A stretch of 32,000 nt of DNA from Candidatus Iainarchaeum sp. (GTDB taxonomy: Archaea; Iainarchaeota; Iainarchaeia; Iainarchaeales; VGJJ01). The stretch covers positions 120,001-152,000 of the forward strand of contig JAUYHT010000008.1 in the NCBI GenBank assembly GCA_030688545.1. The letters run 5' to 3'. Below are positions 1,609 through 30,357 of this stretch, one piece after another (the first letter of the stretch is position 1; each line of letters starts with the position of its first letter). The translations under genes and the position numbers were made by a program. The notes below the pieces were generated by a model, which saw only the letters and a list, made by a program, of their open reading frames with translations, was not told where the DNA came from and ran no database searches.

Positions 1609-1610
1609 AG

Positions 1611-2249: not shown

Positions 2250-2251
2250 AG

Positions 2252-2990: not shown

Positions 2991-3042
2991 AACCCCCAAT
3001 AGTGCCCTTAATCTTAAAATAACTCCTTGCTCTATCTAGCAT

Positions 3043-3675: not shown

Positions 3676-3700
3676 TTTCAGAAATTAGTCTACTGGAATC

Positions 3701-3750
3701 TTTTTTGTTTAAATTAAGAGTAAAAAGAACGCCCCACCTCCACGGTGGCG
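3701..3750. terminator. convergent terminator zone: oligo-T tract plus an imperfect hairpin
   Basis: TTTTTTGTTT at 3701-3710 lies 26 nt after the + strand stop. Imperfect hairpin CGCC(CC)ACC-TCCAC-GGTGGCG at 3730-3750, followed on the minus strand by TTTTT (3722-3726), lies just after the minus-strand stop at 3758. Confidence 0.3.
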
Positions 3751-3757
3751 ATTCGTT

Positions 3758-4117: not shown

Positions 4118-4134
4118 ACGTATAGCACACTCCG

Positions 4135-4485
4135 TTATATATAATTGTTTTGGTATTGAGCCAAATACCATCTCCAGTTTCCCATGACCTTCTCATAGTA
4201 ATATATCACCGCCTCATACGAAACAGGACGATTATGATACTCCTTTTCTCCTGGACCTATGAAAAAATTATGCATGTGAATGGACTCCTTTTTGTTCCCG
4301 TCAATTTTGACAATTTCAATTGGATGACTATCTTTCCAATGAAGCTGAATGATAGCGAATGATTCAATAATCGAAAAATCTTCATCAGCCCGAATCCGGA
4401 CGACCATTTTATTCTGTTCGGTTTCATCGAGTGAAACTATCATTTTATAATTTTTCAAATCGCTCATTTTAGCAACCGCCAGCAT
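4135..4485 (-). CDS. small hypothetical protein, possible toxin-like partner (DUF6516-like?)
   Basis: 116 aa, immediately upstream of and co-oriented with the HTH gene. The histidine-rich core IHMHNFF...EYHNRP loosely recalls DUF6516-type proteins. No firm motif. Confidence 0.35.
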   Translation of the reverse strand: MLAVAKMSDLKNYKMIVSLDETEQNKMVVRIRADEDFSIIESFAIIQLHWKDSHPIEIVKIDGNKKESIHMHNFFIGPGEKEYHNRPVSYEAVIYYYEKVMGNWRWYLAQYQNNYI

Positions 4486-4562
4486 TCAATTTATATTGTT
4501 AGGGAAAATTTTTGCGCGAATTCATACCTTTATTTTTATACTGTTGACTACAAAATAGCAAT

Positions 4563-4952
4563 ATGCCCCCTATTCTCAATGTCAACGCCATCGACCACAT
4601 CAACATGTCCGTGAAGGACCTGGAGAAGAGCGTGCGGTTCTACCGAGAGGTGTTCGGCTTCGAGATCAAGGAGGACCAATCCAAGGACGCTTCCTACATC
4701 ATCGGCAATGCGCACGTGAAACTCTGTTTATATGAGGACAAGAATTTACATGTCAAGGAAGGGCTGAACCATTTCGGCTTCCACATCGAAAATTTTGATG
4801 AGATAATTTCAAGATGCAAGGAAATGGGAGTGCCGGTTTCCTATGATGGAGCAATTGAGTGGAAAAACCCCGCGCGATCCAAATCCATCTACATCACCGA
4901 CCCCTCCGGATATGTCATTGAATTAAGCAACCTTCCCGGGGGCGGGTTGTGA
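4563..4952 (+). CDS. VOC-family protein (glyoxalase / bleomycin resistance / dioxygenase fold)
   Basis: IDHINMSVKDLEKSVRFYREVFGFE ... LNHFGFHIENFDE ... YITDPSGYVIEL are typical paired beta-alpha-beta-beta-beta VOC modules. Confidence 0.75.
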   Translation: MPPILNVNAIDHINMSVKDLEKSVRFYREVFGFEIKEDQSKDASYIIGNAHVKLCLYEDKNLHVKEGLNHFGFHIENFDEIISRCKEMGVPVSYDGAIEWKNPARSKSIYITDPSGYVIELSNLPGGGL

Positions 4953-4953
4953 A

Positions 4954-5397
4954 TCACGCAATCGGGTTTATGGCAGTGATCCCCGGAATATTATTGAAAT
5001 CCTTTACGTTTTCAGTGTAAATGACATGGGTTTTATTTCGTAGTGCCGTTTGGGCTAAAACAACATCGTAATAGTCAAGACGCTGCTGGCCGCAAATCGC
5101 AACCGCTTCGCGAATGCTTATCGGGTCATCCACCAATACTATGGGAAACATCTCGCAAAAAAAGGAGATGAAATCGCCGACTTCTTGAGAATGGGTGCCT
5201 TTCTTTTGAATCATCACGCTACCAAATTCGCGCAAATTCTGCATTGCAATAAGAAAATGATCCTTATTCTCTTCCACTTCTCGCATAAACCGTTGGGCTT
5301 TGGCGTGCTTTTCCTTCTCGTTCGCATCCGCAAAATAAACGAGGATGTTGGTGTCAATTAGGGCTGTCCCGCTCATTCGAACACCTTTCAAAATCAT
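4954..5397 (-). CDS. vapC: PIN-domain ribonuclease toxin VapC
   Basis: N-terminal ALIDTNILVYF acidic PIN motif, later YYDVVLAQTA and a C-terminal TEN..DF. ATGA overlap with the upstream antitoxin gene. Confidence 0.75.
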   Translation of the reverse strand: MILKGVRMSGTALIDTNILVYFADANEKEKHAKAQRFMREVEENKDHFLIAMQNLREFGSVMIQKKGTHSQEVGDFISFFCEMFPIVLVDDPISIREAVAICGQQRLDYYDVVLAQTALRNKTHVIYTENVKDFNNIPGITAINPIA

Positions 5398-5690
5398 TCT
5401 CCGTCTGAATCGCCCACGATTTTATGCAAGTGCTCAAACCGTTTTCCTTTGTAAAGGTCGGCGCGCTTAAACGTTCCCACGCCTAAATCAATATCACGAT
5501 TGGATAATTCCCAGGCTTTTTTCCAGGCCCGTTTCCGTCTGTTTTCTTTATCTAATAATTCGAGGGCCTCTTCTACGGTCGCCGAGATGGCCCCTTTTTT
5601 ACCGCCTTTTTCCATGGCCAATTTTGTCAATAGCTTATCCTTTTCATCACTAATGGAGATTAAACGCTGTTTCATAGTAGATATGGGCAT
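5394..5690 (-). CDS. vapB: ribbon-helix-helix antitoxin VapB-like
   Basis: The KQRLISISDEKDKLLTKLAMEKG..ISATVEEALELL pattern is RHH/CopG-like. It has a 4-nt overlap with vapC and a palindromic operator candidate directly upstream. Confidence 0.6.
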   Translation of the reverse strand: MPISTMKQRLISISDEKDKLLTKLAMEKGGKKGAISATVEEALELLDKENRRKRAWKKAWELSNRDIDLGVGTFKRADLYKGKRFEHLHKIVGDSDGE

Positions 5691-5800: not shown

Positions 5801-7171
5801 TCACCGGGTACGGCGCGATGGGGGCTTTTCGAAAAACCCTCCTTGCTTCAAAATTCGTTTCAAATCCATTTTCCCTTTTTCCTTCAACGCGTAATTCACC
5901 TGCACGATGGGCTTGTTGAGCTTAACAATGTTCCCCAAATCAATAGGAGTGCCGGAAACCACATAGTCACAATCCGCCTTATTCAACGTCTTCTCCAGTT
6001 CGCTGATCTGGATTTTGGAATAACCCAGCGCAGGAATCACTTCTTTCAGATTGGGATATTTGTCGAACGCTTTCCGAATATCCCCCACCAGGAAGGGTTT
6101 GGGGTCTAGGATGATGGCGCCCTTCTCTTTAGCGAAAACGGTTCCCGCTCCAAATGGCATACCCCCATGCGTCACGGTGGGACCATCTTCCACCACCACC
6201 ACTTTTTTCCCACGCAACCGAATCTTAGAATCGGTATGGAGTACAGAATCCGCATGGATGATTTTAGCCTTTGGATTATAATGCTGAATGTTCCGCTGGG
6301 TCACCTTGATTTGGGACGGGTGCGCGGCATTCTCCTTGTTGATCACAATAACGTCGGCCATGCGCAGGTTGGTTTCGCCGGGATGATAATGCATCTCGTC
6401 CCCCGCCCGCAGGGGGTCCACAATTACGAAAAGGAGATCCGGCTTGATGAACGAAAAATCATTGTTCCCCCCATCCCAGATGATGACATCGGCTTCCTTC
6501 TCGGCGCGGCGGAGAATTTTTTCATAGTTCACCCCCGCGTACACAATTAATCCCTCCCGGATGTGTTTCTCGTATTCCTCCCGCTCCTCAATGGTGGCGC
6601 GGTGGTGCTTGAGGTCCTTGAGCGTGGCGTATCGCTGCACTTCCTGCCGGGTGAGATTACCATATGGCATGGGGTGCCGGATGACCACGCCCCGACGCTT
6701 AGCCAGCTTGAGCAACCCCCCAATTTTCCTCGTGGTCTGGGATTTCCCCGAACCGGTGCGCACCGCGCAGATGGCGATAACAGGTTTGCTCGATCGCAAC
6801 ATCGTGGCATCCGGCCCCAATAGCCTGAAATTGGTTCCCGCCGCCAGGCATTGAGAGGCGCGATGCATCACATACTCATGCGACACATCCGAATACGCGA
6901 ACACCACTTCATTCACCTTGTATTCCTGAATGAGTTGAGTCAGCTTGTCCTCCGGGAAGATGGGAATCCCTTTAGGATAGAGCTTCCCGGCGAGCTTGGC
7001 GGGAAACTTCCTCCCCGCTATCCCTGGTATCTGGGTGGCCGTGAAACATACTACATCATAGAAAGGATTGTCCTTGTACACCTGATAGAAATCGAAGAAA
7101 TCTCGTCCAGCTGCACCCATGATGATGATGCGGCGTTTTACGAATTGAAGGGGAGTTGTGGGCCCGGCCAT
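5801..7171 (-). CDS. COG2403-family predicted GTPase / cyclic 2,3-diphosphoglycerate synthetase-family protein
   Basis: The family signature runs along the whole length: IMGAAGRDFFDF, FTATQIPGI, VVFAYSDVSHEYVMH, CAVRTGSGKSQTTRK, IRHPMPYG, TIEEREEYE, WDGGNND, HPGETNLRMADVIVINK. Confidence 0.7.
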   Translation of the reverse strand: MAGPTTPLQFVKRRIIIMGAAGRDFFDFYQVYKDNPFYDVVCFTATQIPGIAGRKFPAKLAGKLYPKGIPIFPEDKLTQLIQEYKVNEVVFAYSDVSHEYVMHRASQCLAAGTNFRLLGPDATMLRSSKPVIAICAVRTGSGKSQTTRKIGGLLKLAKRRGVVIRHPMPYGNLTRQEVQRYATLKDLKHHRATIEEREEYEKHIREGLIVYAGVNYEKILRRAEKEADVIIWDGGNNDFSFIKPDLLFVIVDPLRAGDEMHYHPGETNLRMADVIVINKENAAHPSQIKVTQRNIQHYNPKAKIIHADSVLHTDSKIRLRGKKVVVVEDGPTVTHGGMPFGAGTVFAKEKGAIILDPKPFLVGDIRKAFDKYPNLKEVIPALGYSKIQISELEKTLNKADCDYVVSGTPIDLGNIVKLNKPIVQVNYALKEKGKMDLKRILKQGGFFEKPPSRRTR

Positions 7172-10277: not shown

Positions 10278-11081
10278 ATGGGAAGCATGCGTTTATTGGG
10301 AATAGGATTGGCCTTTTTGCTCGTTCTCTCATTCGCCTCGGCCGATGCCCTCCTCGTGGACCCGGTGGTGGAGAAAGGGAAACCCGGCGCCACGTTTGAC
10401 TTGGGAAAGATCGAACCCGGCCAGGGGATTGAGGTCATCCTCTCCAAGGACACCGGGTATGGGGCGTCCGCATTCTGGACCCAATTTGAATGGACCTCTC
10501 TTTCGGATGACAGCCTTCGGGCGCAGGATTCCCAGATTGGCCAAGAAAGCCTTGTCGGCCGAATACAAGCCACCGGATTCACTGAGGAAGGAACGTACCA
10601 CGCCACCCTCGTCCTGAAAGGCGACCCCACCCTATTACAAGAGGAAACCTACCACGTGATATTTACTGTTCAACCCACCCTCGTGAAAGGTAGCTTGGCC
10701 GTGAGGGGGGTAGAAGGAAGGGTCAACCAGGAAATGACCTTTGATGTCCTCCTGGTGAATGATTCCTCTTCCCCCGTGCGCATCCGCGTACAACCCGAGC
10801 TACCGGGAACATGGAGCTCGCCGCGCGAGATCCACTTGGCTCCCCGCTCATTCCAGAATGTGGAGGTTGGCATTACCCCCCGATTCGCGGGAGAGAAGAC
10901 TTTCCCCCTGCACCTGGTGAATACTGAAACCAATCACATTTATTCCACGCTCCAGGGCAACCTCACGGCCCGACCCGAACTCAAAGACCGGTACGCGGCG
11001 GGGTTATACGGATTTCCATTTTTTACCATCTCATTAGTGGCGAACACCCTGGCGAATGCCTTTTTTAGCCTTCTCCTGTGA
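10278..11081 (+). CDS. secreted, C-terminally membrane-anchored surface protein (beta-rich, CARDB/NEW3-like repeats?)
   Basis: Sec-type signal peptide MRLLGIGLAFLLVLSFASA-DA and a C-terminal hydrophobic helix FFTISLVANTLANAFFSLLL. The start could instead be the ATG at 10287. TTTATATT box at 10257-10264. Confidence 0.5.
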   Translation: MGSMRLLGIGLAFLLVLSFASADALLVDPVVEKGKPGATFDLGKIEPGQGIEVILSKDTGYGASAFWTQFEWTSLSDDSLRAQDSQIGQESLVGRIQATGFTEEGTYHATLVLKGDPTLLQEETYHVIFTVQPTLVKGSLAVRGVEGRVNQEMTFDVLLVNDSSSPVRIRVQPELPGTWSSPREIHLAPRSFQNVEVGITPRFAGEKTFPLHLVNTETNHIYSTLQGNLTARPELKDRYAAGLYGFPFFTISLVANTLANAFFSLLL

Positions 11082-12695: not shown

Positions 12696-13385
12696 TCATT
12701 TCCTCAATAATCTTTCCAATTTTTTCTTTTGTGTTTGCAGCAATCTTAGTTTTTCCCGCAGTAATTCGGGTGGCTCATTCCGGACCATCAAGTTGAATTC
12801 CTCCGCGAGATACAATTGGTTGGTATAAATATTGATATCAATAATGGTCTTCATCAAATTCTGAGAAATGTAATACTTTTTCAATCTGGAATAATATAAT
12901 TTTTGATTCGACTTACGAGCTATTGCCATCTGTCTAGAAATCACTTCTAATTCACTTTTCGCTTGTGCGGAATCATAGAGGTTATTCTCAATTTCGGTTG
13001 CCTTATGGATAGCGATAGATGGGTTTCCTCGGAAGGCATATGTCCATTTCAAATCCTTCATCTGTTGCATTTGAACGCCCATTTGCAATACCATATTATC
13101 CTGGAGCGATCCCGGATGCCTTTTCAACCAGGAAATAATCTTTGATATCCGCCGAATACGCAAGTCCGCATATTCCGACACCGCATTGGAGAAAGTAATT
13201 ACGTTAAGGAGATTTAACACTATCCCATCAATGGAACGGAAATTTTGTAATGGCACATGACTCATTTTGCCTAATGTTTGCTTTAACCCCCGTATGTCCT
13301 CAGATAAAGGTTTAAGCTGTTTCCTTAGCTCGATCCACTTGTCCCGGGGATTTCGATCTCTCCTCCTATTGGGCTTTTTAGGCAT
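12696..13385 (-). CDS. hypothetical basic, helical (coiled-coil-like) protein; AT-rich ORFan
   Basis: ATG at 13383-13385. Basic N-terminus MPKKPNRRRDRNPRDK and a K/R/E/L/Q-rich sequence. No recognisable domain. The composition switch falls exactly at the gene borders. Confidence 0.45.
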   Translation of the reverse strand: MPKKPNRRRDRNPRDKWIELRKQLKPLSEDIRGLKQTLGKMSHVPLQNFRSIDGIVLNLLNVITFSNAVSEYADLRIRRISKIISWLKRHPGSLQDNMVLQMGVQMQQMKDLKWTYAFRGNPSIAIHKATEIENNLYDSAQAKSELEVISRQMAIARKSNQKLYYSRLKKYYISQNLMKTIIDINIYTNQLYLAEEFNLMVRNEPPELLREKLRLLQTQKKKLERLLRK

Positions 13386-13428: not shown

Positions 13429-14391
13429 TCAATTACCCATTTCCCGCTGGAAACGTCTAAGTGCCTTTTTGGAATATTCCAAGTCTTTCCGAATAATATC
13501 CCGCGTGCGTCCTTTGAACCGCAGTCCGGTCAGACGGAGGATTTTCAGCTCATATGTGAGGCGTTGAATATCACGGGAGTAATAATTGATTCCAGAGGTA
13601 AAAAATCGGTCGATCAATTGGGGGGAAGGGGATAGGTTTTTCTGTAATCTGTCTTGATGCGCGTCCATAGCTTCTACGAATTTCCTTTTCCAATCAATAC
13701 CTTCAAGTGAATATCCTTCAAAAGCTTTAATCTCCGGTCCGATATTGAGCAATTGCTCAACTTTTCTCTTCTCTTTTCGCCATTCACTTTTCCAGGTCTC
13801 CAGATTCCGGATATATCGCTCTCGATATTTTGATGTCGCCCCGGTGAGGGAGGATGCGGATGTCAACCAATCCAATTCAATATCCAGCCGATTAATCTCA
13901 GCCTCAATATATTTCACGTAAGCCGAATGAAACCCCAAAAGAACGGGAACGGCTCCCTTCAATTCACTAATCGTTTGGATCCTGATTTTTCCCATTCTAT
14001 TGCGAGTCGTCCGGTATTCTCGGCGTTTTTCTTTTAGATCCGCTTCTCCCTCCGCCACTTTCCTTTGGTGCAATCGCCGAAGCGCCGCTAAACGATAGGT
14101 AATCGAACGATACCGCCGATTCCTTCCAAATAGATTGACCATCAACTGGGAAGATCCTCGGTAATGAGAGGATAATGCTTGTTTCACCATATCGGGGTAT
14201 ACGCGCTCAACTGCCGATGTCCCGAAATAGATTGGTCTACGCGGCTCGGTCACCATATCCGGACGCATGACTATTCCGCGACGCCACACATTTGCACGCT
14301 TGGCTTCCCGCTCTAAAAAAGCCAAATCCCGCTTGGCTGTCTTCTTGGGATACGATCGTCTTTCTCTAGACCCCATGTTCCCCAATACCAT
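13429..14391 (-). CDS. hypothetical basic, helical protein; AT-rich ORFan
   Basis: ATG at 14389-14391 (alternative at 14376). 320 aa, Arg/Lys-rich throughout. No recognisable domain. Confidence 0.45.
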   Translation of the reverse strand: MVLGNMGSRERRSYPKKTAKRDLAFLEREAKRANVWRRGIVMRPDMVTEPRRPIYFGTSAVERVYPDMVKQALSSHYRGSSQLMVNLFGRNRRYRSITYRLAALRRLHQRKVAEGEADLKEKRREYRTTRNRMGKIRIQTISELKGAVPVLLGFHSAYVKYIEAEINRLDIELDWLTSASSLTGATSKYRERYIRNLETWKSEWRKEKRKVEQLLNIGPEIKAFEGYSLEGIDWKRKFVEAMDAHQDRLQKNLSPSPQLIDRFFTSGINYYSRDIQRLTYELKILRLTGLRFKGRTRDIIRKDLEYSKKALRRFQREMGN

Positions 14392-18630: not shown

Positions 18631-19434
18631 CTAATCCGAATGTTCTATCTTCGTCATCAGATGCCCGCGCAACCCCGCGTGGTGGCGGGACGCGTACTCA
18701 TGCCCCCGCACCAATTCAAAACGGCGCATATAGAGAATCGTCTTGAGAATCTCAATGAAAGGAATGACCAAAACAAACATGAGAACAAGAGTGATGTACC
18801 GCCCCACGAAAAGAATGGAATCGATTCCCGCCTCAACCAAAGGAAGTAACCCCACGAGCAGGGTGGACACCACCAGGATCAACAGGAAATCCTTGGGATA
18901 CTTGAAGATCACATACCAATTGGTCTTGATGGCCTCGATGATGGGCTTCTCATCCACCACCAAAGACTGGGGGACGAAAATGAATGATAATGAGACCAGG
19001 AACAACGCGAGGTTGATCCAAACGATATCCAAACCCAGGAACAGCCCGGCGCTCACCACCAGAACAAAGAGGAGGCTGAGTAGAACAAAATAGATGAACA
19101 TGGTGAGGAAGAAATGCTCCATCATGTCCCGCAGATACCGCTTCACGGGGACATGGGAAAGGTCATTGCGCACCGCGAGCAACAACAAGGAGAGGAGGAT
19201 GGCATACATCGCCAGGAAAACCAATGAGCCCCCGACTAGGGCCGCCACCACTTCCACGGACAAAAGACTAAATGAATAATCAAAGAAAATCGTGCCATCC
19301 AGGAGAGCGGTGTTGTTGAACTGCTGGAAGAAGAACACGAACACCAGTAATATGGCGAAAGAGAGGCTAATCCTCAGGTTATTTCGATAAAGCTCCCAAA
19401 CCTGCCCCCACCACTCGGATTCAGTCCGCGCCAT
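18631..19434 (-). CDS. polytopic membrane protein (hypothetical, about 6 TM)
   Basis: ATG at 19432-19434, with multiple long hydrophobic segments. No family recognised. Confidence 0.5.
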   Translation of the reverse strand: MARTESEWWGQVWELYRNNLRISLSFAILLVFVFFFQQFNNTALLDGTIFFDYSFSLLSVEVVAALVGGSLVFLAMYAILLSLLLLAVRNDLSHVPVKRYLRDMMEHFFLTMFIYFVLLSLLFVLVVSAGLFLGLDIVWINLALFLVSLSFIFVPQSLVVDEKPIIEAIKTNWYVIFKYPKDFLLILVVSTLLVGLLPLVEAGIDSILFVGRYITLVLMFVLVIPFIEILKTILYMRRFELVRGHEYASRHHAGLRGHLMTKIEHSD

Positions 19435-20531: not shown

Positions 20532-21098
20532 CTACGTAGAAGCAGGGGCCGTGTGCGCGGCTTCCTTGGTATGGTGGGGCAGGGGCTCATCCCAATACCG
20601 ATGAATGATGACGAAAGAAACCCACCCCAGCAACCCCGCGAGCACGAATAGGAAGAAGGGTGACTTGAGGAGGAAATCAAGAAAGTTCTGCATCACGAAA
20701 TCAATCGTAGGACTCAACGAGACGATGCCGGGGTATGCGTCTCCCTTATTGAGGGCCACTAGAAACGCATTGTTCCAATAATAACCCACCATGGAAAAGA
20801 ACCAGGCCACATACCCTAACACCACCCACATCAAAGCAAACGGAATGGATAGAACAAAATCGTCCTTGAAATGAAGGGCATACCATTCCATCCCCAGCCA
20901 AACAAAAATGAACCCAATCAAAGGAATCCCCCAGAACAAGGGGTCCACGAACAAGTATCCCTGGAGGGGCACTCCTTGGAATAGGGAATGACCATAGGCA
21001 TCCCACTTGGGAAGGAAATCAAACACAAGATAAACAAGATACAAAATGACATACGTCAAAACAAGGAAAATGCCTATCTTCATGGGACGCGCGACCAT
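20532..21098 (-). CDS. polytopic membrane protein (hypothetical, about 5 TM)
   Basis: ATG at 21096-21098 (alternative at 21083). Aromatic-rich hydrophobic helices. No family recognised. Confidence 0.5.
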   Translation of the reverse strand: MVARPMKIGIFLVLTYVILYLVYLVFDFLPKWDAYGHSLFQGVPLQGYLFVDPLFWGIPLIGFIFVWLGMEWYALHFKDDFVLSIPFALMWVVLGYVAWFFSMVGYYWNNAFLVALNKGDAYPGIVSLSPTIDFVMQNFLDFLLKSPFFLFVLAGLLGWVSFVIIHRYWDEPLPHHTKEAAHTAPAST

Positions 21099-21226: not shown

Positions 21227-24103
21227 ATGGAAGCCAAACTCCCCCCCAAAATGCCCTGGGTGGAAAAATACCGCCCTCACGCTCTCAAGGATGTAATCGG
21301 GCAACCTGAAATCGTTCCCCGACTTGAACGGTATGTGGCCACCCGGGATCTGCCGCACCTCATGTTCGCGGGGCACGCGGGAATAGGGAAGACATCAGCG
21401 GCCGTGGCATTGGCCAAAGAACTATTTGGTGAAGAGTGGGGGCAGAACTTCATGGAGCTCAACAGCTCGGACGACCGGGGCATTGATGTCGTAAGGGGCA
21501 CCATCAAGGATTTCGCGCGCACGCTAGCGTTCAATGCGGATTTCAAGATCATATTTTTAGATGAGTGCGACGCACTCACCGCGGATGCCCAACAGGCTTT
21601 GCGTCGAACGATGGAAAAATATTCCAGGACGGTTCGCTTTATTCTTTCGTGCGTAACACCCGAAACACGTATCGCAACACCTGAAGAAACTGAAATGACA
21701 ATAGGCGAATACTTTGAGCGATTTGAAGAAAAAAAAATAAAACATGTTTTCAATGTCCACGAAAAAAGGAGCAAAGCAAAAACTGATTTGGTCTTGGCAG
21801 CCTTAAAACAGAATCCAAAAATGAATGGAAAAAAAGTTATGGAAATACAAACGAATACTGGACGCACCCTCCACGTAACGGACGACCACCCCCTCTTCAC
21901 GAGTGAAGGATGGAAAAAAGTCAAGGACCTCCAAATGAAAGAAAAGATCGTTATATTTCCGGCACTGGAAACTACTTCTTATCCAACTGATATTCGACCA
22001 TTATTTGATATTGAAGAATTTGAGCGATTCCTCGAGAACCTGGAGGTGCGTCCACGTCTAAATCTCACCAACGCTACCCAATTCAGACAGTTAACCGCCA
22101 TGGACAAACGGAAAATGGTTGATAAAATACACGAATATTACTCCTTCATTTCATCGGGAAAAGGAGTTACGCCACGAGAGTTAAAACTTTTGTCATTTAT
22201 TCCAACCGATAAAAATATTTCCCGTGCCTCGTTAGCACAACATATGCAGCTATCGCGCATTCGTACCGTGCAACTACTACAAGTATTAGAATCCAAGGGG
22301 TTTGTCCGACGCACAATAGAAGGAAAAATCCATTCATTTTGCCGCACAAATGAAATCCCACGCAAAATAAGGAACTTTAGGGATATCCAAAATGAAATCA
22401 AAAAACAATTTGGAATTAGTGTTTCTTATACCGAAGTCCAAAAGCTGGCACGACGGGAAGTAGTGTTTGAAGGAAAAACAGCCGGAACCCTGAACGAATT
22501 AACAAAAAAAGAACTGTTAACCCTCCGTTGTGATGATGAAAAAACGTTTGCTCTCATCCGAGTCCTTGGATTTGTATTTGGTGACGGCCACATCATCCAT
22601 AACCACCAACGCATTTGGTTCAGTGGAAATACGGATGCGCTAGACGAAGTCCGCAACGATCTCAAAAAGCTGGGTTTCACTCCCAGCCCCACCCAGACCA
22701 AACAGATTCGCGGGAACATTGGAGGAAGACAATTCGATGGCGAAACGACATTTATGTTTCTTGATTCGCGTCCCCTGGGATACTTGCTTGCCTTTTTGGG
22801 GGCATCAACGGGAGATAAAGTAATCACGCCGTATTCCCTACCCTCTATAGTTAAAACAGGAAACCGTCTAATCAAGCGCGAATTCCTTCGTGCATTATTC
22901 GGATGCGAAGGTTATTCGCCGCGAATAACATACAAGAGTTTGGAAGCCATCACGTTGCGCATGCACAAGGATTTTATTCTCCGATCAAATATGCTCGCAT
23001 TTTTTGGCGATCTCCAAACCTTATTGAAGGAATTCGACGTTGACTCCTACTTAGGGATAAACTCAACATCCTACACACGAAAAGATGGACAAAAATCTGA
23101 AATCCACGAACTTATCATTACTCCCAATGAAGAAAACACCTATCGCTTCTTGAGTCGAGTTGGATACGCATTCGAAATAGCTAAAATGAACAAAGCACGA
23201 TTGGTGGGAGAATATTTACGCTATAAAAGTGCTAACCTAATGCGCCAAAAAAAGAAAGCGGAAGAAATCGTTGTATTATTAAAGGATGGATATACCAAAA
23301 GCGCCATCGCACGTATCGTTGATTGTTCAAGAGACTTCGTTGTTGGCCAATCTTTAGGAAAGCAAGTTCATTCACCGCACGACTTCTTATCTTATGAAAA
23401 ATGGAAAGATAAATACGGTTTCAAAGAAGGCCTTGTATTCAATGAAATCACATCCATGCACGAAATTGAGGTTCCGTTTGTCATGGATATCACATGCCAT
23501 AACGATCACAATTTTATCGCGAATGGTATTATGGCCCATAATTGCAATTTTTCATCTCGGATAATCGAACCCATCCAAAGCCGGTGTGTCGTGTTCCGAT
23601 TCCGCCCGCTGCGAAAGGTGGACCTGGAAAAGCAATTGCGATTAATCGCTGAAAAAGAGGGGGTGGTGCTGGAACCCAAAGCCATCGACGCCATAGAATA
23701 TGTGAGCGAGGGGGATATGCGCAAGGCCATCAACGTGCTGCAGGCGGCCGCGACGCTTGAAAAAAAGGTCACTGAAACCATCGTGTACAACGTGGCCAAC
23801 AAAGCGCAACCAAAAGAAGTGAAGGAAATGATCCATGCCGCCCTGAAGGGGAAATTCATGGACGCCCGGGAAAAACTGGATTACCTCATGCTAGAGAACG
23901 GGTTATCCGGGGAAGATATCATCAAACAGATCCACAAGGAAGTCCTGGATTGGGACGAAAACGAATTGGACTCCCAGACCAAAATTCGCCTTGTCGACCG
24001 AATTGGAGAATACGACTTCCGCCTCGTGGAAGGGGCCAATGAACGCATCCAGCTCGAAGCCTTGCTCGCCCAGATGGGCTTGGTTGCGAGTGAGAAGAAA
24101 TAA
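21227..24103 (+). CDS. rfcS: replication factor C small subunit, interrupted by one intein
   Basis: Exteins: PWVEKYRP, P-loop GHAGIGKTS, Walker [15 protein letters not shown] | [15 protein letters not shown]. The joined exteins come to about 327 aa, the normal RFC-S size. Confidence 0.9.
21650..23542 (+). mobile_element. 631-aa intein with a LAGLIDADG homing endonuclease and extra HTH modules
   Basis: Starts with Cys ([11 protein letters not shown] at 21650), block [21 protein letters not shown] motifs [10 protein letters not shown] and [11 protein letters not shown]. Blocks [23 protein letters not shown] are followed by the +1 Cys (TGC at 23543). It is markedly more AT-rich than the exteins. 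Confidence 0.9.
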
Positions 24104-24206
24104 GAACCTCGACGCGCCATCTGAAAATGGCCAAAGATCGACCGGTCGCGCGAAAACACCAACCGAATCACCTATAAAGAAACAAAAAACCGTGCATTTG
24201 GACAAG

Positions 24207-24218
24207 ATTTAAATTAAG
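24207..24218. promoter_or_regulatory. A/T-rich TATA-like box
   Basis: ATTTAAATTAAG lies 13 nt upstream of ATG 24231 and 19 nt upstream of ATG 24237. Confidence 0.25.
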
Positions 24219-24230: not shown

Positions 24231-25538
24231 ATGTTCATGCCCCAAAAAAACCGATTGGCGTCGAGACAAGAAAGGGTATTGCGGAAAATAGGATTGATGC
24301 CATTAACCTCTACTAAAGAAATTTCCACGCGTTTTGGAATATCAATTAATAACCTCAAAATTATTGAGAGATTACATGCGGGAAGGTTAGAAACCAAAAG
24401 AGGATTAATCGAAAAGTTTTCAAGGGACCCCAACAAAAATCGTCTTTTAACGCACCCAAAATTATGGGCATTGCATCGAACCATGGAACTGGCACCCCTT
24501 TTAACCGCTAGGGAAATACATGAACAACTGGAAAGAGAAAAAAAACACCACCCTCACCTTTCCTCGCTAAAAATTCCGTCCGAAAATATGATAAATTTGA
24601 CAATTAAAAATTTAAAACTCCGCACCGAAGAACAGGAAAAGATATTGCTTCGAAAAAGATATGATAAAAGAAGAAGGCCCATCAACGAATTGACTCCGGA
24701 GCAACGACAGATGCTAGCCGATGCCGCAAAACCCCTTATTGAAAGATATTGGAGTAAGATACGAAGAAATTATGGAGACGAATTGGCTGACATCATCCGT
24801 GACCATATTCAGGACGAAACCAAGTATGTTCGAATTCCCGCCCATTTATCAAAAGAAGAGATGGAACACGCATGGTTGGCCTACCTGAAAAAAGGACAAC
24901 GCTACTTTTTTCTGCGAGGGGTAGCCATTCTCCGATCGCGCACAAAAGGAAAGCGCCGCATTCAGTTTCCCGAAGGAGAAATTCCTAATATTGAAATCGA
25001 AGCACTCCAACCGATAGAAAGAGAAATGGAATTCCCTCCCGACATAACGTTTCCTACCCGCTTAAGTCGACGAGAAGGGCAAGTATTGCAGTTATTGAAA
25101 GAAGGAAAAACGCGAAAGCAGATTGCTGTAATACAAGGGGTAGGAACCGCTGCTATCGGTGCTACTGTAAGTAGGATTCGAAAAAAAATAAAAATAGGAG
25201 GTGGCGAAGAAACACCCCGCCCATCAGAAAAAACCTCACTCCCAATAAAAAAAGCTATTCGCAGACCACTTGATCCTCCAAAACAACAAAAATATCCAGA
25301 AACACATATTGGTGACCCTATTCGACGAGCCATCATTACCTACCTTTCAAAGAGAGCAGGAACCTATTATTCACGAGGGAGATTAAAGCAAAGAATACGT
25401 GAGGAGTTTCCAAGTCCACATCCATCTACATTTTGGAAAAAACGTGTCATGCCCCAAATCCAATACTTATTAGAAAATGGCTGGATTGAGGAAGAAATCA
25501 TCCAAGGGAAAGTACCTTGGTACCGGTTGAAAACCTAA
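24231..25538 (+). CDS. multi-HTH DNA-binding protein: N-terminal sigma-4-like HTH, LuxR/GerE-type HTH, C-terminal winged helix
   Basis: LSRREGQVLQLLKEGKTRKQIAVIQGVGTAAIGATVSRIRKKI (nt 25062-25190) matches the LuxR/GerE pattern. The N-terminal LASRQERVLRKIGLMPLTSTKEISTRFGISINNLKIIE is also HTH-like. C-terminal IITYLSKRAG...IQYLLENGWIEEE..GKVPWYRL looks like a wHTH. Confidence 0.6.
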   Translation: MFMPQKNRLASRQERVLRKIGLMPLTSTKEISTRFGISINNLKIIERLHAGRLETKRGLIEKFSRDPNKNRLLTHPKLWALHRTMELAPLLTAREIHEQLEREKKHHPHLSSLKIPSENMINLTIKNLKLRTEEQEKILLRKRYDKRRRPINELTPEQRQMLADAAKPLIERYWSKIRRNYGDELADIIRDHIQDETKYVRIPAHLSKEEMEHAWLAYLKKGQRYFFLRGVAILRSRTKGKRRIQFPEGEIPNIEIEALQPIEREMEFPPDITFPTRLSRREGQVLQLLKEGKTRKQIAVIQGVGTAAIGATVSRIRKKIKIGGGEETPRPSEKTSLPIKKAIRRPLDPPKQQKYPETHIGDPIRRAIITYLSKRAGTYYSRGRLKQRIREEFPSPHPSTFWKKRVMPQIQYLLENGWIEEEIIQGKVPWYRLKT

Positions 25539-25616
25539 AAAACCAAATCCGCTGCTGAATGTTGGCACAATTCAACCGTTTTGAAACCTACGGCGGTTTG
25601 GTCCCGATAAAATTAA

Positions 25617-25934
25617 ATGGATAAAAATGAAGGTCACCATATGTCTGATATTGAGCACGAAAATGAAGCCTATGAGGAGCTCAAGGATTTCCTTGAGAAT
25701 CGGTTCAATAATTTTCATTATACCATCATTGTCGGCCTCGGCCGAATTGAAAATGACAAAGAGATATATGCCATGGGATTCACATTATCGAATACGGATG
25801 CGCATACACCCTTTGGTATTATTAAGGGAATAATTGCTAATATAATAGCTGAATATCAGCAATTGATCGACCAGTATGAGCCAAACCCCGCCCCCTCGCT
25901 TTTCAAAACAAAAGGAGAAAAACCAAATGCCTAA
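25617..25934 (+). CDS. small acidic hypothetical protein
   Basis: 105 aa, ATG at 25617, AT-rich. No motif recognised. Confidence 0.35.
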   Translation: MDKNEGHHMSDIEHENEAYEELKDFLENRFNNFHYTIIVGLGRIENDKEIYAMGFTLSNTDAHTPFGIIKGIIANIIAEYQQLIDQYEPNPAPSLFKTKGEKPNA

Positions 25935-26026
25935 CATTACCCGCATTCGTGTTCCGATTGACCGTCTCGATTTACTCCGAGTTCCTTTTCCAAAAGAAAT
26001 ACTCGTGGATGCTAAAAAGGAAATGG

Positions 26027-27274
26027 CTAAAAAAAATCAAGCAAACGACGCTGATGCATAATCCGATCCAGCAATTTTGAATTTTTCTTCCATTCCTTCA
26101 AAGGAATGGTCAATTTTGATCCGAGTGCCTGTAACGCCGGTTCCAACGAATCGAATAAATATGAAGACTGTTCCATGGCGTTTCGCACATTCTGGCGACA
26201 CTGCCAAACACCCATAGGTTGTTGATACCCGGGCCCAATCTCCCGGAAGATTATGGCCGCGGCTTGCCGGCGGTTCTCTTTCATCCACTCAAGCACCGCG
26301 AGGCGCGTAGCATAATATCCTCCTGCCACATTCTCGGCATAATTTTTCCGCCCATCAAAGAATTCATGATCGCAACTCATGTGCACATTCGTCATCTCCT
26401 GCGCCCAAAAGGAACCCGGGCGATATGCTTCCATGATGTCGAATCCCCATTCCCGAGGAAGGAGGAGAACATAGAAATGATTATCCAAAAAATGGGATTC
26501 AAAAAGACGGAACTCATCAATCTGAGAAAAATCCTTGATTTGGTCGATGAGATATTTGCCGATGGTGTCGTCGGATACGGTGATGCTCCAGCGCGTGGGA
26601 GTCAATTTTCGGTTCGCCATCACCCCCAACGTACCCGCGCTCAACAGTTTGTACAAATGATGCACAGGAATATCTTTCTCGTATAATTCCTGCATCGCGG
26701 TGGCGGCCTTGACCTGGTGATCACTGACCAAATACTCCACCTTATCGGGAATGTGGGGGTTTTCCTGCAACGAAAAATGTTTCATGGGCGCCTGTGGACC
26801 CATGGGGGGTGTGTCATGGGAGAATTCCAGTTTGGACATCGGGCTTTTTGTCAATTCCACTTCCACCTCCACCTTTTGGGAAGCCATGGCAATCTCCTGG
26901 ATCTTCTGCAACTCATTGGAAGGATTGCGCGCGGCATGAATCGACATAGGAAGGTTGGACCGAATTAATTGGGAGCGGAATCCCACCAGTTCATCCAATG
27001 GCCTCCCGAACCAGCGCTCCGGGTTGTCCAACAGGTCCGCGGCGTCCGCATCCAAGGAGAACGTGGGGGCCATGGGGGCAATTTTAACCTTGGGATAACC
27101 ATGATGGGAGACGAATAACGAGGGAGGGGAACTCCCTGAAAATACCTTTCCTTTCATCCGCGAAATGGTGCGCTGTTGCCCCTCATGCTTCTCCAAAACC
27201 CAGCATATGGGCCCACACCACAAGCGCCCACGGCACTTGACACACGTTTCGGGGGAGGGCTTGAGGGGCTGCAT
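26027..27274 (-). CDS. nreA: archaeal DNA repair protein NreA (Nre family, DUF650/DUF651)
   Basis: N-terminal Cys cluster CVKCRGRLWCGPIC, then FSGSSPPSLFVSHHGYPKVKIAPM, the family hallmark. I prefer the ATG at 27272-27274, because the track start is a TTG. Confidence 0.7.
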   Translation of the reverse strand: MQPLKPSPETCVKCRGRLWCGPICWVLEKHEGQQRTISRMKGKVFSGSSPPSLFVSHHGYPKVKIAPMAPTFSLDADAADLLDNPERWFGRPLDELVGFRSQLIRSNLPMSIHAARNPSNELQKIQEIAMASQKVEVEVELTKSPMSKLEFSHDTPPMGPQAPMKHFSLQENPHIPDKVEYLVSDHQVKAATAMQELYEKDIPVHHLYKLLSAGTLGVMANRKLTPTRWSITVSDDTIGKYLIDQIKDFSQIDEFRLFESHFLDNHFYVLLLPREWGFDIMEAYRPGSFWAQEMTNVHMSCDHEFFDGRKNYAENVAGGYYATRLAVLEWMKENRRQAAAIIFREIGPGYQQPMGVWQCRQNVRNAMEQSSYLFDSLEPALQALGSKLTIPLKEWKKNSKLLDRIMHQRRLLDFF

Positions 27275-27338
27275 ACCTAGGTAAAGACAAAACGGGCTTT
27301 TCAAGGTTTGGACGGTCTATCGCCGAGGAAAACGTTAA

Positions 27339-28397
27339 ATGGGTGGATTGGGTCAATCCCCCATGACCCGATCCTCCCGGTTGCCCAGCGAGCGATTCCA
27401 TCGCCGGCCATCAACGCGAGAAAGGACACGTGCCGCTCTACTAGCACGAACGAAAAAGGGATGGCTGGAACGCCTTCACGAACCGCCCCCCTGGTGGGAG
27501 AAAGGAAAACTGTTGGATTATAGAACTAAAAGATGGAATGAGGTGGAAGAAGGCATTCGTTCTACCAGTCCCGAAAAATACGCAGAAGCCGAGCGTCAGT
27601 TAAAAAACCATTTTGATTATCAAGCTGAATACGCGATTAGAAAATATTTTGAATTGAGACCAAACACCCCCTATTCATTTGAAGAAATATATACGCGCAT
27701 GCTCGAAAGACATTATTTCAACTTTTTGACAGCAGCCAAAGAAAATTTATCTGGTTCCTCTTATATTCTTGCAAGAATGAGCCTTGCCATCGGGCCGGAA
27801 AAAAGGGTTCTTGAAAGTTTTGAACAACAAAATCTACCAAAAGCAAGTCGCTTTACGAGCCACCCACGTTTTGGCAAAGCGAGTTCCAGAAAAATATCTT
27901 TACTTGGAATACTTCCCCCCCACATCCCGACAACGCCTAGCCGACCGGACATCGTGCATTACCTATCTGGGATACCTGAACCCAACCGGACCATTGTGAT
28001 GCGCTATTTCGGAGTAGGGACAGCACCCGAAACACTAGCTTCCATTGCAAAAGATTATGGCGTAACTGGGGTAAGAATTCGCCAACGGATTCGACGCTCG
28101 CTCGAAATCATCCGCACCAGAACGCGGCCACCAAAATCAAAAAAAAAGATTATCCGACGGAGGCGGAATGAACTCATTCGGGAAACCCTTGAAATATTCA
28201 TGAAAAAGGGGGAAGGTTCTATAAAAATGATCAAATCCAGAGACCTATTTTCCCTATTGCGATTAACATATCCGGCAATTAACTATTCCACTTTTATTCG
28301 GCTGCTAACTCAACTGGAAAGAGAGGATCGAATCGACCATATCGCTTATGGGGTATACACCCTCCGCCCGAAAGGGCGGCCGAGGAAAGACCATTAA
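27339..28397 (+). CDS. multi-HTH DNA-binding protein with a sigma-70 region-4-like HTH, a C-terminal winged helix and an AT-hook-like tail
   Basis: LSGIPEPNRTIVMRYFGVGTAPETLASIAKDYGVTGVRIRQRIRRSLEIIR (nt 27963-28115) matches the RpoD region 4 pattern L..L..rE..vl.mRfGl......TLeEvg..f.VTRERIRQIE.kALrKLR. The C-terminus is ...YGVYTLRPKGRPRKDH. The Arg-rich N-terminal 55 codons are GC-rich, so the true start is uncertain. Confidence 0.55.
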   Translation: MGGLGQSPMTRSSRLPSERFHRRPSTRERTRAALLARTKKGWLERLHEPPPWWEKGKLLDYRTKRWNEVEEGIRSTSPEKYAEAERQLKNHFDYQAEYAIRKYFELRPNTPYSFEEIYTRMLERHYFNFLTAAKENLSGSSYILARMSLAIGPEKRVLESFEQQNLPKASRFTSHPRFGKASSRKISLLGILPPHIPTTPSRPDIVHYLSGIPEPNRTIVMRYFGVGTAPETLASIAKDYGVTGVRIRQRIRRSLEIIRTRTRPPKSKKKIIRRRRNELIRETLEIFMKKGEGSIKMIKSRDLFSLLRLTYPAINYSTFIRLLTQLEREDRIDHIAYGVYTLRPKGRPRKDH

Positions 28398-28422
28398 AAC
28401 CCATCCTCCCGGAAGATAGGCT

Positions 28423-30357
28423 ATGGGCGAAACCGTTTCCCTGACCCTTCCTGACGGAAAAAAAATAGAGATGGAGAGAGGAACGACCGTGCGCCAAGCG
28501 GTGGAAAAAATTGGGCCGCGCCTGGCGAAAGACGCGCTCGCCGCATCCCTGAATGGGAAGCTCGTGGACCTATTCAGCGAAGTCATTACGGAGGCCGAAT
28601 TAAAGGTACTCACGTTCTCTTCGCCGGAAGGGAAAGAGGTGTATTGGCATTCCACCTCTCACCTCATGGCGTTCGCCATCGAGGAATTATTTCCAACCGC
28701 CAAAATTGCCATCGGCCCCGCCATCGAAGAAGGATTCTATTACGACATCGATTTTGAACGGCCATTTACCCCCGAGGATTTGGAAAAAATAGAAGCCAAA
28801 ATGCGCGAATTGGCCAAGGCGGATTTTCAAGTAAAACGCATCGAGATGAAACGGGATGACGCCATCCGCTTCTTCGAGAAGAGGAAGAACCCCTACAAGG
28901 TGGAGATCCTCTCGGAATTGGCTGATGAAAAGGTTTCCTTGTACGAGGAAGGGCGATTCATCGACCTCTGCACCGGTCCCCATGTCCCCTCCACGGGAAC
29001 GATTGGGGCGGTGAAATTGTTGCGCGTCTCTGGGGCCTATTGGCGAGGGGATGCCAAAAACAAACAATTGCAGCGCGTCTATGGAATAAGCTTTCCGACG
29101 CAAAAAGAAATGGAAGCCTTTTTGAAGGAACTGGAAGAAAGAGAAAAACGCGACCACCGGCGAATAGGAAAAGAGATGAAGATCTTTGCCTTCCATGAAG
29201 ACATTGGGATGGGATTGCCATTATGGCTGCCAAATGGGGAGCAGTTGTTTCATACCCTCCAAGAATTTATGCGGGAAGTGGAGGAAGAAGCGGGATACCA
29301 ATATGTGCGCACTCCCCATATCATCAAGGGAAAAATGCTCGAACGCACCGGACACATCCCGTATTACACCGCCTCCATGTACACCCCCATTGAGATTGAG
29401 GGGGAACACTATTACCTCAGACCCATGAACTGCCCCCACCACCACGCCATCTATTCGGAACTGGTGCAGAGCTACAAACAGCTCCCTCTTCGTTTAGCCG
29501 AAGCAGGAACGATATACCGGTATGAATTGAGCGGAACCATGTATGGAATTATCCGCACGCGGGGATTTACCCAGAACGATGCCCACCTCTACGTGACACC
29601 GGAACAGGTGGAAGATGAAGTGATAAACGTACTGCAAATGAATATAGACATTTATGAAAAAATGGGATTGAAAAACTATTGGTTCCAATTGTCCCTGCCG
29701 GATTTCGAAGGACATCCTGAAAAATATGCGGGTGACAAAAAAAGGTGGGAAATGGCCGCGGAGGCCCTGCGCCGGGCCGGTAAACGGATCAAAAAGAATG
29801 TAGTGGAAGTGATGGATGAAGCCGCGTTCTATGGTCCCAAAATAGATATACAGACCAAAAATGTTAAAGGGAAGGAAGAGTCCATCGCCACCGTACAAGT
29901 AGACATCATGGTCCCCAAAAGACTTGGGTTAACCTACATCGACGAGCAGGATAAACCTCAAATACCCGTTGTCATCCACCGGGCCATCATCGGCAGCTAT
30001 GAGCGATTCATCGCGTTCCTATTGGAACAGACGATGGGAAAATTTCCCCTATGGCTGGCACCAGTGCAGGTAAAAATTCTCCCCCTGAGCGAAAAGTTCC
30101 GCACCTACGGAGAAAAAGTCTTTTTGGAAATGAAAAAGCGGGGAATTAGGGTAGAACTGGATTCCACGGACGAGACACTCAACTATCGCATCCGGAATGC
30201 GCAACTGGAAAAAGTTCCCTACATGGTGATTGTCGGGGAAAAAGAAGAGAAGGCCCATGCCGTGAGCATCCGAACACGCCAAGGAAACCAGGAGAATGGG
30301 ATTCCTTTCGACACTTTTTTGGCCCGCATCCAAAAAGAAAATGACGAAAAGGAATAA
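28423..30357 (+). CDS. thrS: threonyl-tRNA synthetase, full-length bacterial/eukaryal-type architecture (TGS + N2 editing + class II core + anticodon-binding)
   Basis: TGS start ...LTLPDGKKIEMERGTT, editing motifs HSTSHLMA and GPAIEEGFYYD, class II motifs YLRPMNCPHH, FTQNDAH, and the C-terminal LAPVQVKILPLS anticodon-binding domain. Confidence 0.9.
   Translation: MGETVSLTLPDGKKIEMERGTTVRQAVEKIGPRLAKDALAASLNGKLVDLFSEVITEAELKVLTFSSPEGKEVYWHSTSHLMAFAIEELFPTAKIAIGPAIEEGFYYDIDFERPFTPEDLEKIEAKMRELAKADFQVKRIEMKRDDAIRFFEKRKNPYKVEILSELADEKVSLYEEGRFIDLCTGPHVPSTGTIGAVKLLRVSGAYWRGDAKNKQLQRVYGISFPTQKEMEAFLKELEEREKRDHRRIGKEMKIFAFHEDIGMGLPLWLPNGEQLFHTLQEFMREVEEEAGYQYVRTPHIIKGKMLERTGHIPYYTASMYTPIEIEGEHYYLRPMNCPHHHAIYSELVQSYKQLPLRLAEAGTIYRYELSGTMYGIIRTRGFTQNDAHLYVTPEQVEDEVINVLQMNIDIYEKMGLKNYWFQLSLPDFEGHPEKYAGDKKRWEMAAEALRRAGKRIKKNVVEVMDEAAFYGPKIDIQTKNVKGKEESIATVQVDIMVPKRLGLTYIDEQDKPQIPVVIHRAIIGSYERFIAFLLEQTMGKFPLWLAPVQVKILPLSEKFRTYGEKVFLEMKKRGIRVELDSTDETLNYRIRNAQLEKVPYMVIVGEKEEKAHAVSIRTRQGNQENGIPFDTFLARIQKENDEKE

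Follow-up and report, generated by a model that had tools for sequence, protein, structure and literature searches.

The Tfx family, whose members include MTH0916 Tfx and EnfR/TON_1525 of Thermococcus onnurineus, comprises archaeal regulators that bind promoter DNA through a helix-turn-helix (HTH) resembling region 4 of the sigma-70 factors, in the case of EnfR as a dimer (PMC10570040). LuxR-type proteins and proteins annotated with sigma-70 region 4 (sigma-4) have been catalogued in archaea, including the DPANN archaea (PMC5413776), and genes classified as sigma-70 have been reported to be truly encoded in DPANN genomes, where they are prevalent in Woesearchaeota, lack accompanying anti-sigma factors and act by an unclear mechanism (Castelle et al., 2021; PMC8204110). 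Here, we analyse two genes, A and B, that lie on either side of an nreA-like DNA-repair gene in a stretch of 32,000 nucleotides of DNA from Candidatus Iainarchaeum sp. (the window), in which the locus occupies positions 24231-28397. A encodes a protein with a LuxR/GerE-type HTH and B a protein with a sigma-4 HTH, and the GerE and Sigma70_r4 matches of the two proteins are far beyond chance. With a probability of roughly 0.62, we consider A and B to be two unrelated, lineage-specific and strongly basic DNA-binding transcription regulators that follow the plan of the LuxR/FixJ/sigma-4 superfamily and are not sigma factors. A first-pass annotation of this DNA had described such proteins as unexpected in archaea. 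The sigma-4 HTH is genuinely present, but the surprise was overstated in view of the precedents provided by Tfx/EnfR (PMC10570040), the LuxR survey (PMC5413776) and the DPANN sigma-70 genes (PMC8204110). The phenomenon itself is already known, and the new aspects are the delineation of the B family, its novel N-terminal domain, its conserved genomic slot and its turnover.

Among the known systems, the Tfx family offers the best precedent for the probable action of A and B, because it is archaeal and uses a sigma-4-like HTH as its DNA-reading head. In Tfx, however, the HTH stands at the N-terminus, ahead of an acidic TFX_C domain, whereas the HTH of A and B follows a long unrelated N-terminal region, is sometimes succeeded by a winged helix and belongs to proteins that are basic throughout; neither A nor B matches TFX_C (Pfam, E<=1). 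The LuxR/FixJ/NarL/GerE regulators (PF00196), including the archaeal 'LuxR solos', resemble A in their GerE HTH and in the arrangement of an N-terminal part and a C-terminal HTH. They differ from A, which has no receiver, autoinducer-binding, GAF or PAS domain and which in the window copy carries an additional C-terminal tail. The bacterial sigma-70 factors of groups 1-4 share with B a homologous region 4, including its recognition-helix signature. In contrast to them, B lacks regions 2, 1.2 and 3, carries an extra winged helix and occurs in a host with archaeal machinery, and the closest species representative found (locus L004) can do without its gene. Finally, fam00359 of Castelle et al. 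(2021) represents the same phenomenon of bacterial-type sigma-70-like genes in DPANN archaea, and the B family is set beside it by description only.

Gene B (27363..28397, plus strand) encodes a protein of 344 amino acids with an isoelectric point (pI) of 10.6 (gene-caller product P0001), or of 352 amino acids if read from the ATG at 27339. A sigma-70 region 4 HTH had been proposed for this protein on the basis of its sequence pattern and is confirmed. Residues 209-259 (27963..28115) match Pfam Sigma70_r4 with an E-value of 8.9e-7 and 28.8 bits, above the cut-off of 24.1, and the same family is matched by 10 of the 13 members of the B family (best E-value 3.8e-15), while GerE is matched by a single one. 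A profile of the family finds region 4 of SigA/RpoD in the PDB at 4e-12, and the rest of the profile matches no solved protein. The AlphaFold model of B superposes on region 4 of sigma-L (Foldseek match 3hug_E; root-mean-square deviation 2.1 Å over 56 columns, probability 1.00). In the recognition helix of the family, the ER(V/I)RQIE signature typical of primary sigma factors is retained. In NCBIfam, only sub-threshold sigma and LuxR matches were obtained over the HTH stretches of A and B.

A word-indexed protein search of 5.8 billion clusters returned B itself as the lone match. The family was therefore defined by an exhaustive HMMER scan of 1.84 billion cluster representatives at E<=1e-3, which yielded 19 matches, about 12 of them with the N-terminal region of B at 22-45% identity. 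Their common layout starts with a basic N-terminus, often containing LPSERF, and continues with the motif L..LH.PP.WW..GK, a helical core (AE.RL..HFDY.A...I..YF...P.SP.SFE..Y..ML.R), the motif FE..F, a variable linker and the sigma-4 HTH. By these alignments, B is a member of a small, fast-evolving and rare archaeal family, which fits one of the options named in the first-pass annotation, a lineage-specific regulator family. An HMM of the N-terminal domain finds one open reading frame (ORF) per related locus, with E-values from 1e-44 to 1e-56, and none of the loci, the window included, contains a second copy. The called product P0004 of locus L084 (375-1211; 220 amino acids) is probably truncated at its N-terminus, as the open frame upstream encodes MPKTRSLPSE...WLDRLHQPPKWWRKGKQL with the N-terminal motifs of the family. 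In the HMMER matches outside the family (P0014-P0021), sigma-4 is fused to HTH_3, fused to alpha-CTD repeats or present alone, and sigma-4 without sigma region 2 (sigma-2) is thus not unusual.

The family-defining domain of B spans residues 25-172 (27411..27854) and consists of the L..LH.PP.WW..GK motif and a predicted helical bundle. In the AlphaFold model of the full-length protein, which has a mean confidence (pLDDT) of 77.4, helices extend from residue 26 to 165 and are followed by a disordered stretch (171-198), the HTH (202-262), a long basic helix (266-290) and a winged helix (296-342). When residues 25-172 were modelled alone from the family alignment, the pLDDT was 86.3 and the predicted template-modelling score (pTM) 0.78. 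Every factor of the sigma-70 family relies on sigma-2 for attachment to the clamp helices and for melting of the -10 element. The first-pass annotation had suggested a degenerate sigma-2-like bundle in B, and this suggestion was rejected on three lines of evidence: Sigma70_r2 is matched by none of the 13 family members (Pfam, E<=0.1); the profile of the domain reaches a probability below 1% in hhalign comparisons with E. coli RpoE and with P0020, a protein of bacterial type that has sigma regions 1.2 and 4 and is probably a sigma factor; and a Foldseek search of the PDB with the dedicated domain model gave no match, the best hit having an E-value of 2.8 and the best sigma factor an E-value of 7.3 and a template-modelling (TM) score of 0.29. 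Sigma regions 1.2 and 3 were likewise not found in B. When the full-length model was used, Foldseek listed sigma factors first, with no match at E<=0.001 (best 4.5e-3) and TM scores of about 0.16; these long alignments are non-significant and driven by sigma-4 and generic helices. Residues 1-200 match no recognised regulatory domain in Pfam, NCBIfam or the PDB, and the viral structure library BFVD contains no match for the domain model (best E-value 0.93). As modelled, the N-terminal domain of B is a novel fold, without a match in the PDB or BFVD.

Gene A (24237..25538, plus strand) encodes a protein of 433 amino acids with a pI of 10.4 (gene-caller product P0002, starting with MPQKNRL), or of 435 amino acids if the ATG at 24231 is used. 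The textbook LuxR/GerE HTH that had been noticed in A is confirmed: residues 278-322 (25062..25196), a tetra-helical HTH, match Pfam GerE with an E-value of 8e-8 and 32.2 bits, which exceeds the curated cut-off of 23.5, and a profile of the three A-family members matches LuxR/NarL/GerE-type HTHs in the PDB, including RhlR (2e-5), DesR (3e-5), GerE (5.5e-4) and NarL. Only two relatives of A were found, both about 30% identical: P0003 from a metagenome-assembled genome (MAG) at NCBI and a JGI metagenome ORF (L091:8001-8957). Both stop directly after the LuxR HTH, and both are located elsewhere in their genomes, P0003 in the order HSP20-A-ScpB and the other in the order RpoK-unknown-A-HerA. Conservation within the family is highest over the first 145 residues. 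This region (24237..24680) contains the motifs RQ..L.KIGL.PLTS....RFGI and LL.HPKLWAL.R...LAP..T..EI and is possibly HTH-like, as judged from the alignments. An additional sigma-4-like HTH at the N-terminus of A had also been proposed and is weakly supported: residues 27-48 align with the sigma-4 HTH of the B family in hhalign (E-value 2.3e-4, probability 45%, 22 columns), but no Pfam or PDB match accompanies this alignment. Residues 1-270 as a whole match nothing in Pfam, NCBIfam or the PDB, and this includes receiver, autoinducer-binding, GAF and PAS domains.

A comparison of the two proteins gave a clear division between the HTH and everything else. BLASTP finds no significant similarity between A and B. 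At the level of profiles, the LuxR segment of the A family and the sigma-4 segment of the B family are matched by hhalign with a probability of 96% and an E-value of 1.2e-9, and the whole family profiles with a probability of 80% over 47 columns. The N-terminal parts of the two families do not match each other in hhalign. The similarity proposed for A and B thus holds for the HTH, which is homologous, but nothing is detectable beyond it by sequence or profile. Because the likeness is restricted to the HTH, a paralogous origin was rejected, and A and B are two different proteins with one common superfamily domain instead of a duplicated pair. Both are rich in lysine and arginine (about 21% in each). 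Their G+C contents at third codon positions (GC3) are 0.36 for A and 0.42 for B, compared with about 0.6 in nreA, thrS, ABCE1 and the gene for the CCA-adding enzyme. The same deficit is found in B-family genes and other orphan ORFs of L085, L089 and L093, and we take it to characterise fast-evolving accessory genes and not to signal recent transfer. An H-x-P-x-x-W motif is common to the A family (LLxHPKLWAL) and the B family (LHxPPxWW), with a non-significant hhalign alignment (E-value 0.016). In two different genomes, scpB and an A-family gene (P0003; L002 2936-4491) or a B-family gene (P0008; contig of ENA ERZ27297570) are transcribed towards each other and lie no more than 9 bp apart, and the two families may occupy equivalent positions.

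The C-terminal tails were thought to share one architecture, a basic linker followed by a winged helix. For B, the structural model provides a winged helix at residues 296-342 (28224..28364) behind the long basic helix, with the secondary structure E296-299, H300-310, H316-328, E332-336 and E339-342 assigned by DSSP and a Foldseek match to the DNA-binding domain of Fur (probability 0.98), in addition to weak matches to the winged helices of AbiEi and MarR. The corresponding tail of A comprises 113 residues (323-435; 25197..25538) with a Lys/Arg/Pro-rich linker and a putative winged helix, and is absent from both relatives. The two tails are not significantly similar, however; BLASTP gives an E-value of 0.058 over 23 residues and hhalign an E-value of 0.012 with a probability of 3.5%, in register with the winged-helix layout but non-significant. 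The winged helix occurs in 4 of the 13 B-family members (B, P0010, P0012 and P0017) and in one of the three A-family members, and is an optional add-on module. The last part of B contains the sequence RPKGRPRK (residues 343-350; 28365..28388), in which a GRP core is flanked by basic residues, as in the AT-hook proteins of the HMGA type. The string is present as the first-pass annotation had reported, and translation of the window in all six frames gives no other such motif, but it is not conserved in any relative: a C-terminal GRP is absent from 12 of 12, including the 45%-identical P0004, and Pfam AT_hook is not matched. It further differs from AT-hook proteins in being present in a single copy, at the extreme C-terminus and in one protein only. 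Due to this lack of conservation, an AT-hook cannot define the mechanism or function of the family. The window-specific C-terminal extension of B runs into the promoter-like box of the downstream gene thrS.

The order of genes at the locus is A (plus strand), a small ORF termed S (plus), the nreA-like gene (minus) and B (plus), preceded by a gene for an intein-containing small subunit of replication factor C (RFC) and followed by thrS. The coordinates and strands assigned to ORFs A and B in the first-pass annotation and the location of nreA between them are correct, and the translations contain all peptides quoted there. The order nreA (minus)/B-family gene (plus)/thrS (plus) is present in four independent assemblies, namely those of the window, L084 (P0004), L085 (P0010) and L089 (P0017). 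Across these genomes, identity is about 75% for the thrS product and about 74% for NreA, but only 29-45% for B; the thrS product of the window reaches about 75% in comparisons with L004, L085 and L089. Since the slot was conserved while B diverged far more than its neighbours, the B gene is positionally old and fast-evolving. Locus L004, with 76% identity in the threonyl-tRNA synthetase (ThrRS), shows the order RFC(intein)-S-nreA-thrS without A and B, and the corresponding gaps measure about 400 bp and 116 bp. Other members of the B family are found next to class II lysyl-tRNA synthetase (LysRS) genes (twice; L087 and L095), between NOG1 and UPF0147/PolD-DP1, and next to ScpB, all of which are archaeal housekeeping neighbourhoods. 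An aminoacyl-tRNA synthetase gene adjoins the B-family gene in six of the nine contexts examined, and the class II LysRS of L087 and L095 is bacterial-type.

Upstream of A, B and nreA, sequences resembling archaeal TATA boxes can be recognised. For B, the element CGTTAAAT (27333..27340, plus strand) follows a conserved CGCCGA and overlaps the first ATG at 27339. The consensus CGCC(G/A)A...T(T/A)AAAT(A/G)GG is shared by the window, L084 and L089 and is followed in all three by an ATG at a distance of about 24 nt, which points to 27363 as the start of B. The likely start codons of A and B are in both cases the second ATGs (24237 and 27363), which are also the choices of the gene caller; the TATA-like boxes lie about 25-27 nt upstream of them, and for B this spacing is conserved in the relatives. 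The box of A (TTTAAATT; 24209..24216, plus strand), as read from the sequence, is centred about 25 nt upstream of the ATG at 24237, a spacing that would be expected for a leaderless archaeal mRNA. The candidate element of nreA (TTGAAAAG on the minus strand; 27297..27304) precedes the ATG of nreA by about 26 nt; its conserved form is CTTTTCAA or CTTTTGAA in the window, in L084 and in L089, and ATTTCAA in L004. The promoter-like elements of nreA and B are arranged back to back, about 35 bp apart. L004 keeps a related B-type element without a B gene, and this promoter remnant argues for a loss of B in L004 rather than a gain in the window. The sequence TTTGGAC is found upstream of A (24197-24203, 5 nt before the TATA-like box) and of B (27307-27313, between the divergent nreA and B boxes). 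As a shared operator it was rejected, because its five copies in the window compare with 6.4 expected by chance, and it is a candidate operator half-site.

In the reading that we prefer, A and B would consist of a regulatory N-terminal part and a C-terminal tetra-helical HTH, with the HTH serving as the DNA-reading head, which resembles GerE in A and in B comes nearest to region 4.2 of group-1 sigma factors. The window copies would have gained a basic linker and a C-terminal winged helix as a second module for binding DNA or a partner, while the N-terminal region might mediate oligomerisation or respond to a signal or partner. As targets, the promoter of B itself and the divergent control region of nreA are the simplest guess, because the two promoters are divergent and closely spaced. 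By analogy to Tfx/EnfR, the proteins could act by modulating the access of TBP, TFB and RNA polymerase. Several regulator-like traits speak for this assignment, including the basic pI, the own conserved TATA-like box divergent from nreA and the modular winged helix, although it is the domain identities, the family membership, the gene order, the missing sigma-2 and the non-conserved AT-hook that were observed, and DNA binding, its targets and a function for the N-terminal domain are proposed from sequence.

Some findings weigh against this assignment. The sigma-4 of B, with its retained ER(V/I)RQIE signature, matches primary sigma factors better than LuxR regulators, and such a primary-sigma-like region 4 leaves a small probability for a sigma-like role of B. 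Furthermore, since B-family genes occur also in other neighbourhoods and nreA keeps its promoter in L004 without B, local regulation of nreA by B is not obligatory. The assignment is also based on sequence and structural models for an organism that is uncultured.

If it is correct, its consequences are mostly in annotation: A and B would receive a defensible role as regulators of the sigma-4/LuxR superfamily, and the correction is implied that a sigma-4 match in an archaeon does not indicate a sigma factor. The B family would be a small family with the genomic anchor nreA/B/thrS and with an N-terminal domain without structural relatives, and a concrete, testable example of the DPANN 'sigma-70-like genes' of Castelle et al. 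(2021). Its fast divergence and its presence or absence in highly syntenic genomes suggest a possible marker of lineage-specific regulatory turnover.

A viral or mobile origin was among the possibilities raised in the first-pass annotation, and A and B could be remnants of an integrated virus, a plasmid or a defence island, deposited beside nreA as regulators or AbiEi-like antitoxins. We consider this unlikely. The GC3 values of A and B are well below those of their core neighbours, as would fit a foreign origin, but low GC3 is common to B-family genes in other genomes and to other orphan ORFs. The absence of B from L004 could similarly reflect a gain in the window, yet the B-type promoter remnant in that genome points to loss, and the presence of B in the same nreA-thrS slot in four genomes, despite an identity of only 29-45%, argues for old vertical inheritance. 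A recent insertion of B was rejected on the same grounds, given its position in L084, L085 and L089. Database comparisons provide no link to viruses: no match to A was found among the IMG/VR viral contigs, and the one match to B, 37 residues from a giant-virus MAG, was judged meaningless and set aside; BFVD holds no structural match for the N-terminal domain of B. In PHROGs, B matches a sigma-factor family over the sigma-4 and winged-helix stretch (E-value 4e-7) and nothing beyond sigma-factor or regulator HTHs. PADLOC returns only marginal winged-helix or HTH matches, including AbiEi (E-value 0.0022), which could be counted in favour of an antitoxin, but all PHROG and PADLOC matches cover only generic HTH and winged-helix domains. 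No integrase, tRNA or toxin partner is encoded near A or B. A 13-nt direct repeat (CCGATCCTCCCGG/CCCATCCTCCCGG) flanks the B ORF at 27368-27380 and 28400-28412, 5 nt after the ATG and 3 nt after the stop codon, a striking placement that encloses the ORF almost exactly. As an insertion scar it was discarded, because one copy belongs to the part of the ORF that encodes conserved N-terminal residues and the other to the conserved leader of thrS, and the repeat is probably due to chance.

For A, the evidence is thinner, and a mobile origin is more viable than for B and somewhat open. The interval between RFC and nreA differs among the relatives and holds other genes there, which places A in a variable slot, and the interval is a variable hotspot in the lineage. 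In L085, it contains (1692-4833) three unrelated ORFs in place of A and S. The first encodes 384 amino acids with a weak JAB/MPN-like match (HTHPANEPFPSPID; Prok-JAB E-value 9.6e-4, below the cut-off), the second 144 amino acids, and the third 443 amino acids with a LAGLIDADG-like segment, recognised by eye, and a winged-helix-like C-terminal end. The variability of the interval, with the JAB match and the LAGLIDADG-like gene in L085, counts in favour of a mobile origin.

A true sigma-like factor is a further explanation, in which B, and perhaps A, would dock on the archaeal RNA polymerase with or instead of TBP/TFB, as a bacterial system co-opted by a DPANN-type archaeon. The close similarity of the B-family sigma-4 to region 4 of primary sigma factors, at 4e-12 and with a RERIRQIE-like recognition helix, is in line with this idea, as is the Foldseek list for the full-length model, which consists nearly entirely of weak sigma-factor matches. 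The report of sigma-70-classified DPANN genes without anti-sigma factors also left their mechanism open (PMC8204110). On the other hand, sigma-2 is missing by Pfam, hhalign and structure, the full-length Foldseek matches fall short of E<=0.001, and sigma-4 alone is a common modular HTH in proteins that are not sigma factors, such as P0014-P0021 and Tfx/EnfR (PMC10570040). As the gene is moreover dispensable in L004, we regard a genuine sigma-like factor as very improbable.

A variant of this idea is that the B family constitutes an RNA polymerase-associated specificity factor, in which sigma region 4 is carried on a new N-terminal domain that replaces sigma-2 as an anchor or binds TFB/TFE. The recognition helix would then read a -35-like element. 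If true, this would establish a DPANN-type lineage with a hybrid bacterial/archaeal initiation pathway, but we give the variant, with its -35-like element, even less credence.

The least credible explanation, also taken from the first-pass annotation, is a role of B as a nucleoid-associated protein or xenogeneic silencer, coating AT-rich islands via its AT-hook-like tail and basic linker: the literal RPKGRPRK at the C-terminus, the very basic composition and the heterogeneous G+C content of the window (36-42% at 1-5000) agree with it, but the single motif copy is missing from all 12 relatives, including P0004, and unknown to Pfam AT_hook, no homology to H-NS, Lsr2, MvaT or Rok was detected (Pfam/NCBIfam, E<=1), and the low GC3 relative to core genes does not suggest the high expression of a chromatin protein, which is a weak inference.

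The nreA-like gene between A and B (26027..27274, minus strand) lies in an ORF that extends to 27304, has its likely start at the ATG at 27274 and encodes a called product of 415 amino acids. It contains the Pfam domains Nre_N (3.6e-86) and Nre_C (9.4e-36), and its NCBIfam NreA score of 285.9 bits is below the equivalog cut-off of 700. ORF S (25617..25934, plus strand) encodes an acidic protein of 105 amino acids with a pI of 4.8. It is 56% identical to the ORF at the same position in L004 (3262-3546), and this conservation indicates a real gene. No significant family was found for it in Pfam, NCBIfam, PHROGs or PADLOC, where the lone entries were Gag_FV_central in Pfam (E-value 0.18) and PDC-S59 in PADLOC (E-value 0.0067). 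For a 61 amino acid ORF that overlaps S (25876-26061), no support was found. Downstream of B, thrS (28423..30357, plus strand) encodes a bacterial-type ThrRS and is a conserved downstream neighbour of B-family genes. Its identification is based on 43-48% identity to loci of bacterial genomes (Nitrospirota, Cloacimonadota and Bacteroidota) and on the domains TGS, tRNA_SAD, tRNA-synt_2b and HGTP_anticodon in the counterparts of L085 and L089, and TGS in L001. A TATA-like box (CATTAAAAC; 28392..28400, plus strand) overlaps the stop codon of B; it reads CATTAAAATC in L084 and L085 and CATTTAAACC in L004, is located about 27 nt upstream of thrS and suggests that thrS has its own promoter.

The RFC small subunit gene of the window (21227-24103, plus strand; 958 amino acids) contains a large intein with homing-endonuclease-like and HTH-like sequence, as does its counterpart in L004 (20-2794; 924 amino acids). 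The RFC orthologue in L085 (572-1558; 328 amino acids) is intein-free, and the extein parts are 75-92% identical among the window, L004 and L085.

Besides RFC and Nre, the proteins encoded in the window include an archaeal CCA-adding enzyme, an eRF1-domain protein and ABCE1, which together corroborate the archaeal nature of the genome assumed in the first-pass annotation, as well as an Elp3-like radical-SAM protein and a T2SSE ATPase of the type II/IV secretion family. A DPANN-like lineage is probable from the parallel in the literature and from the genes that the loci contain. Neither a tRNA nor an Rfam match was detected in the window. Six ORFs of 188-456 amino acids have no Pfam match at an E-value of 0.001, or of 0.01 for the last one: 5801-7171 (minus), 10278-11081 (plus), 12696-13385 (minus), 13429-14391 (minus), 18631-19434 (minus) and 20532-21098 (minus). 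They are further lineage-specific genes of the window. Positions 1-5400 have a low G+C content (36-42%, compared with 52-56% at 6-19 kb) and contain many small accessory genes, including those for a cytidine/dCMP deaminase, a GDSL lipase, a glyoxalase and SnoaL-like, metallo-beta-lactamase-fold, HVO_A0114-type winged-helix and PIN-domain proteins, and this part of the window may be a genomic island.

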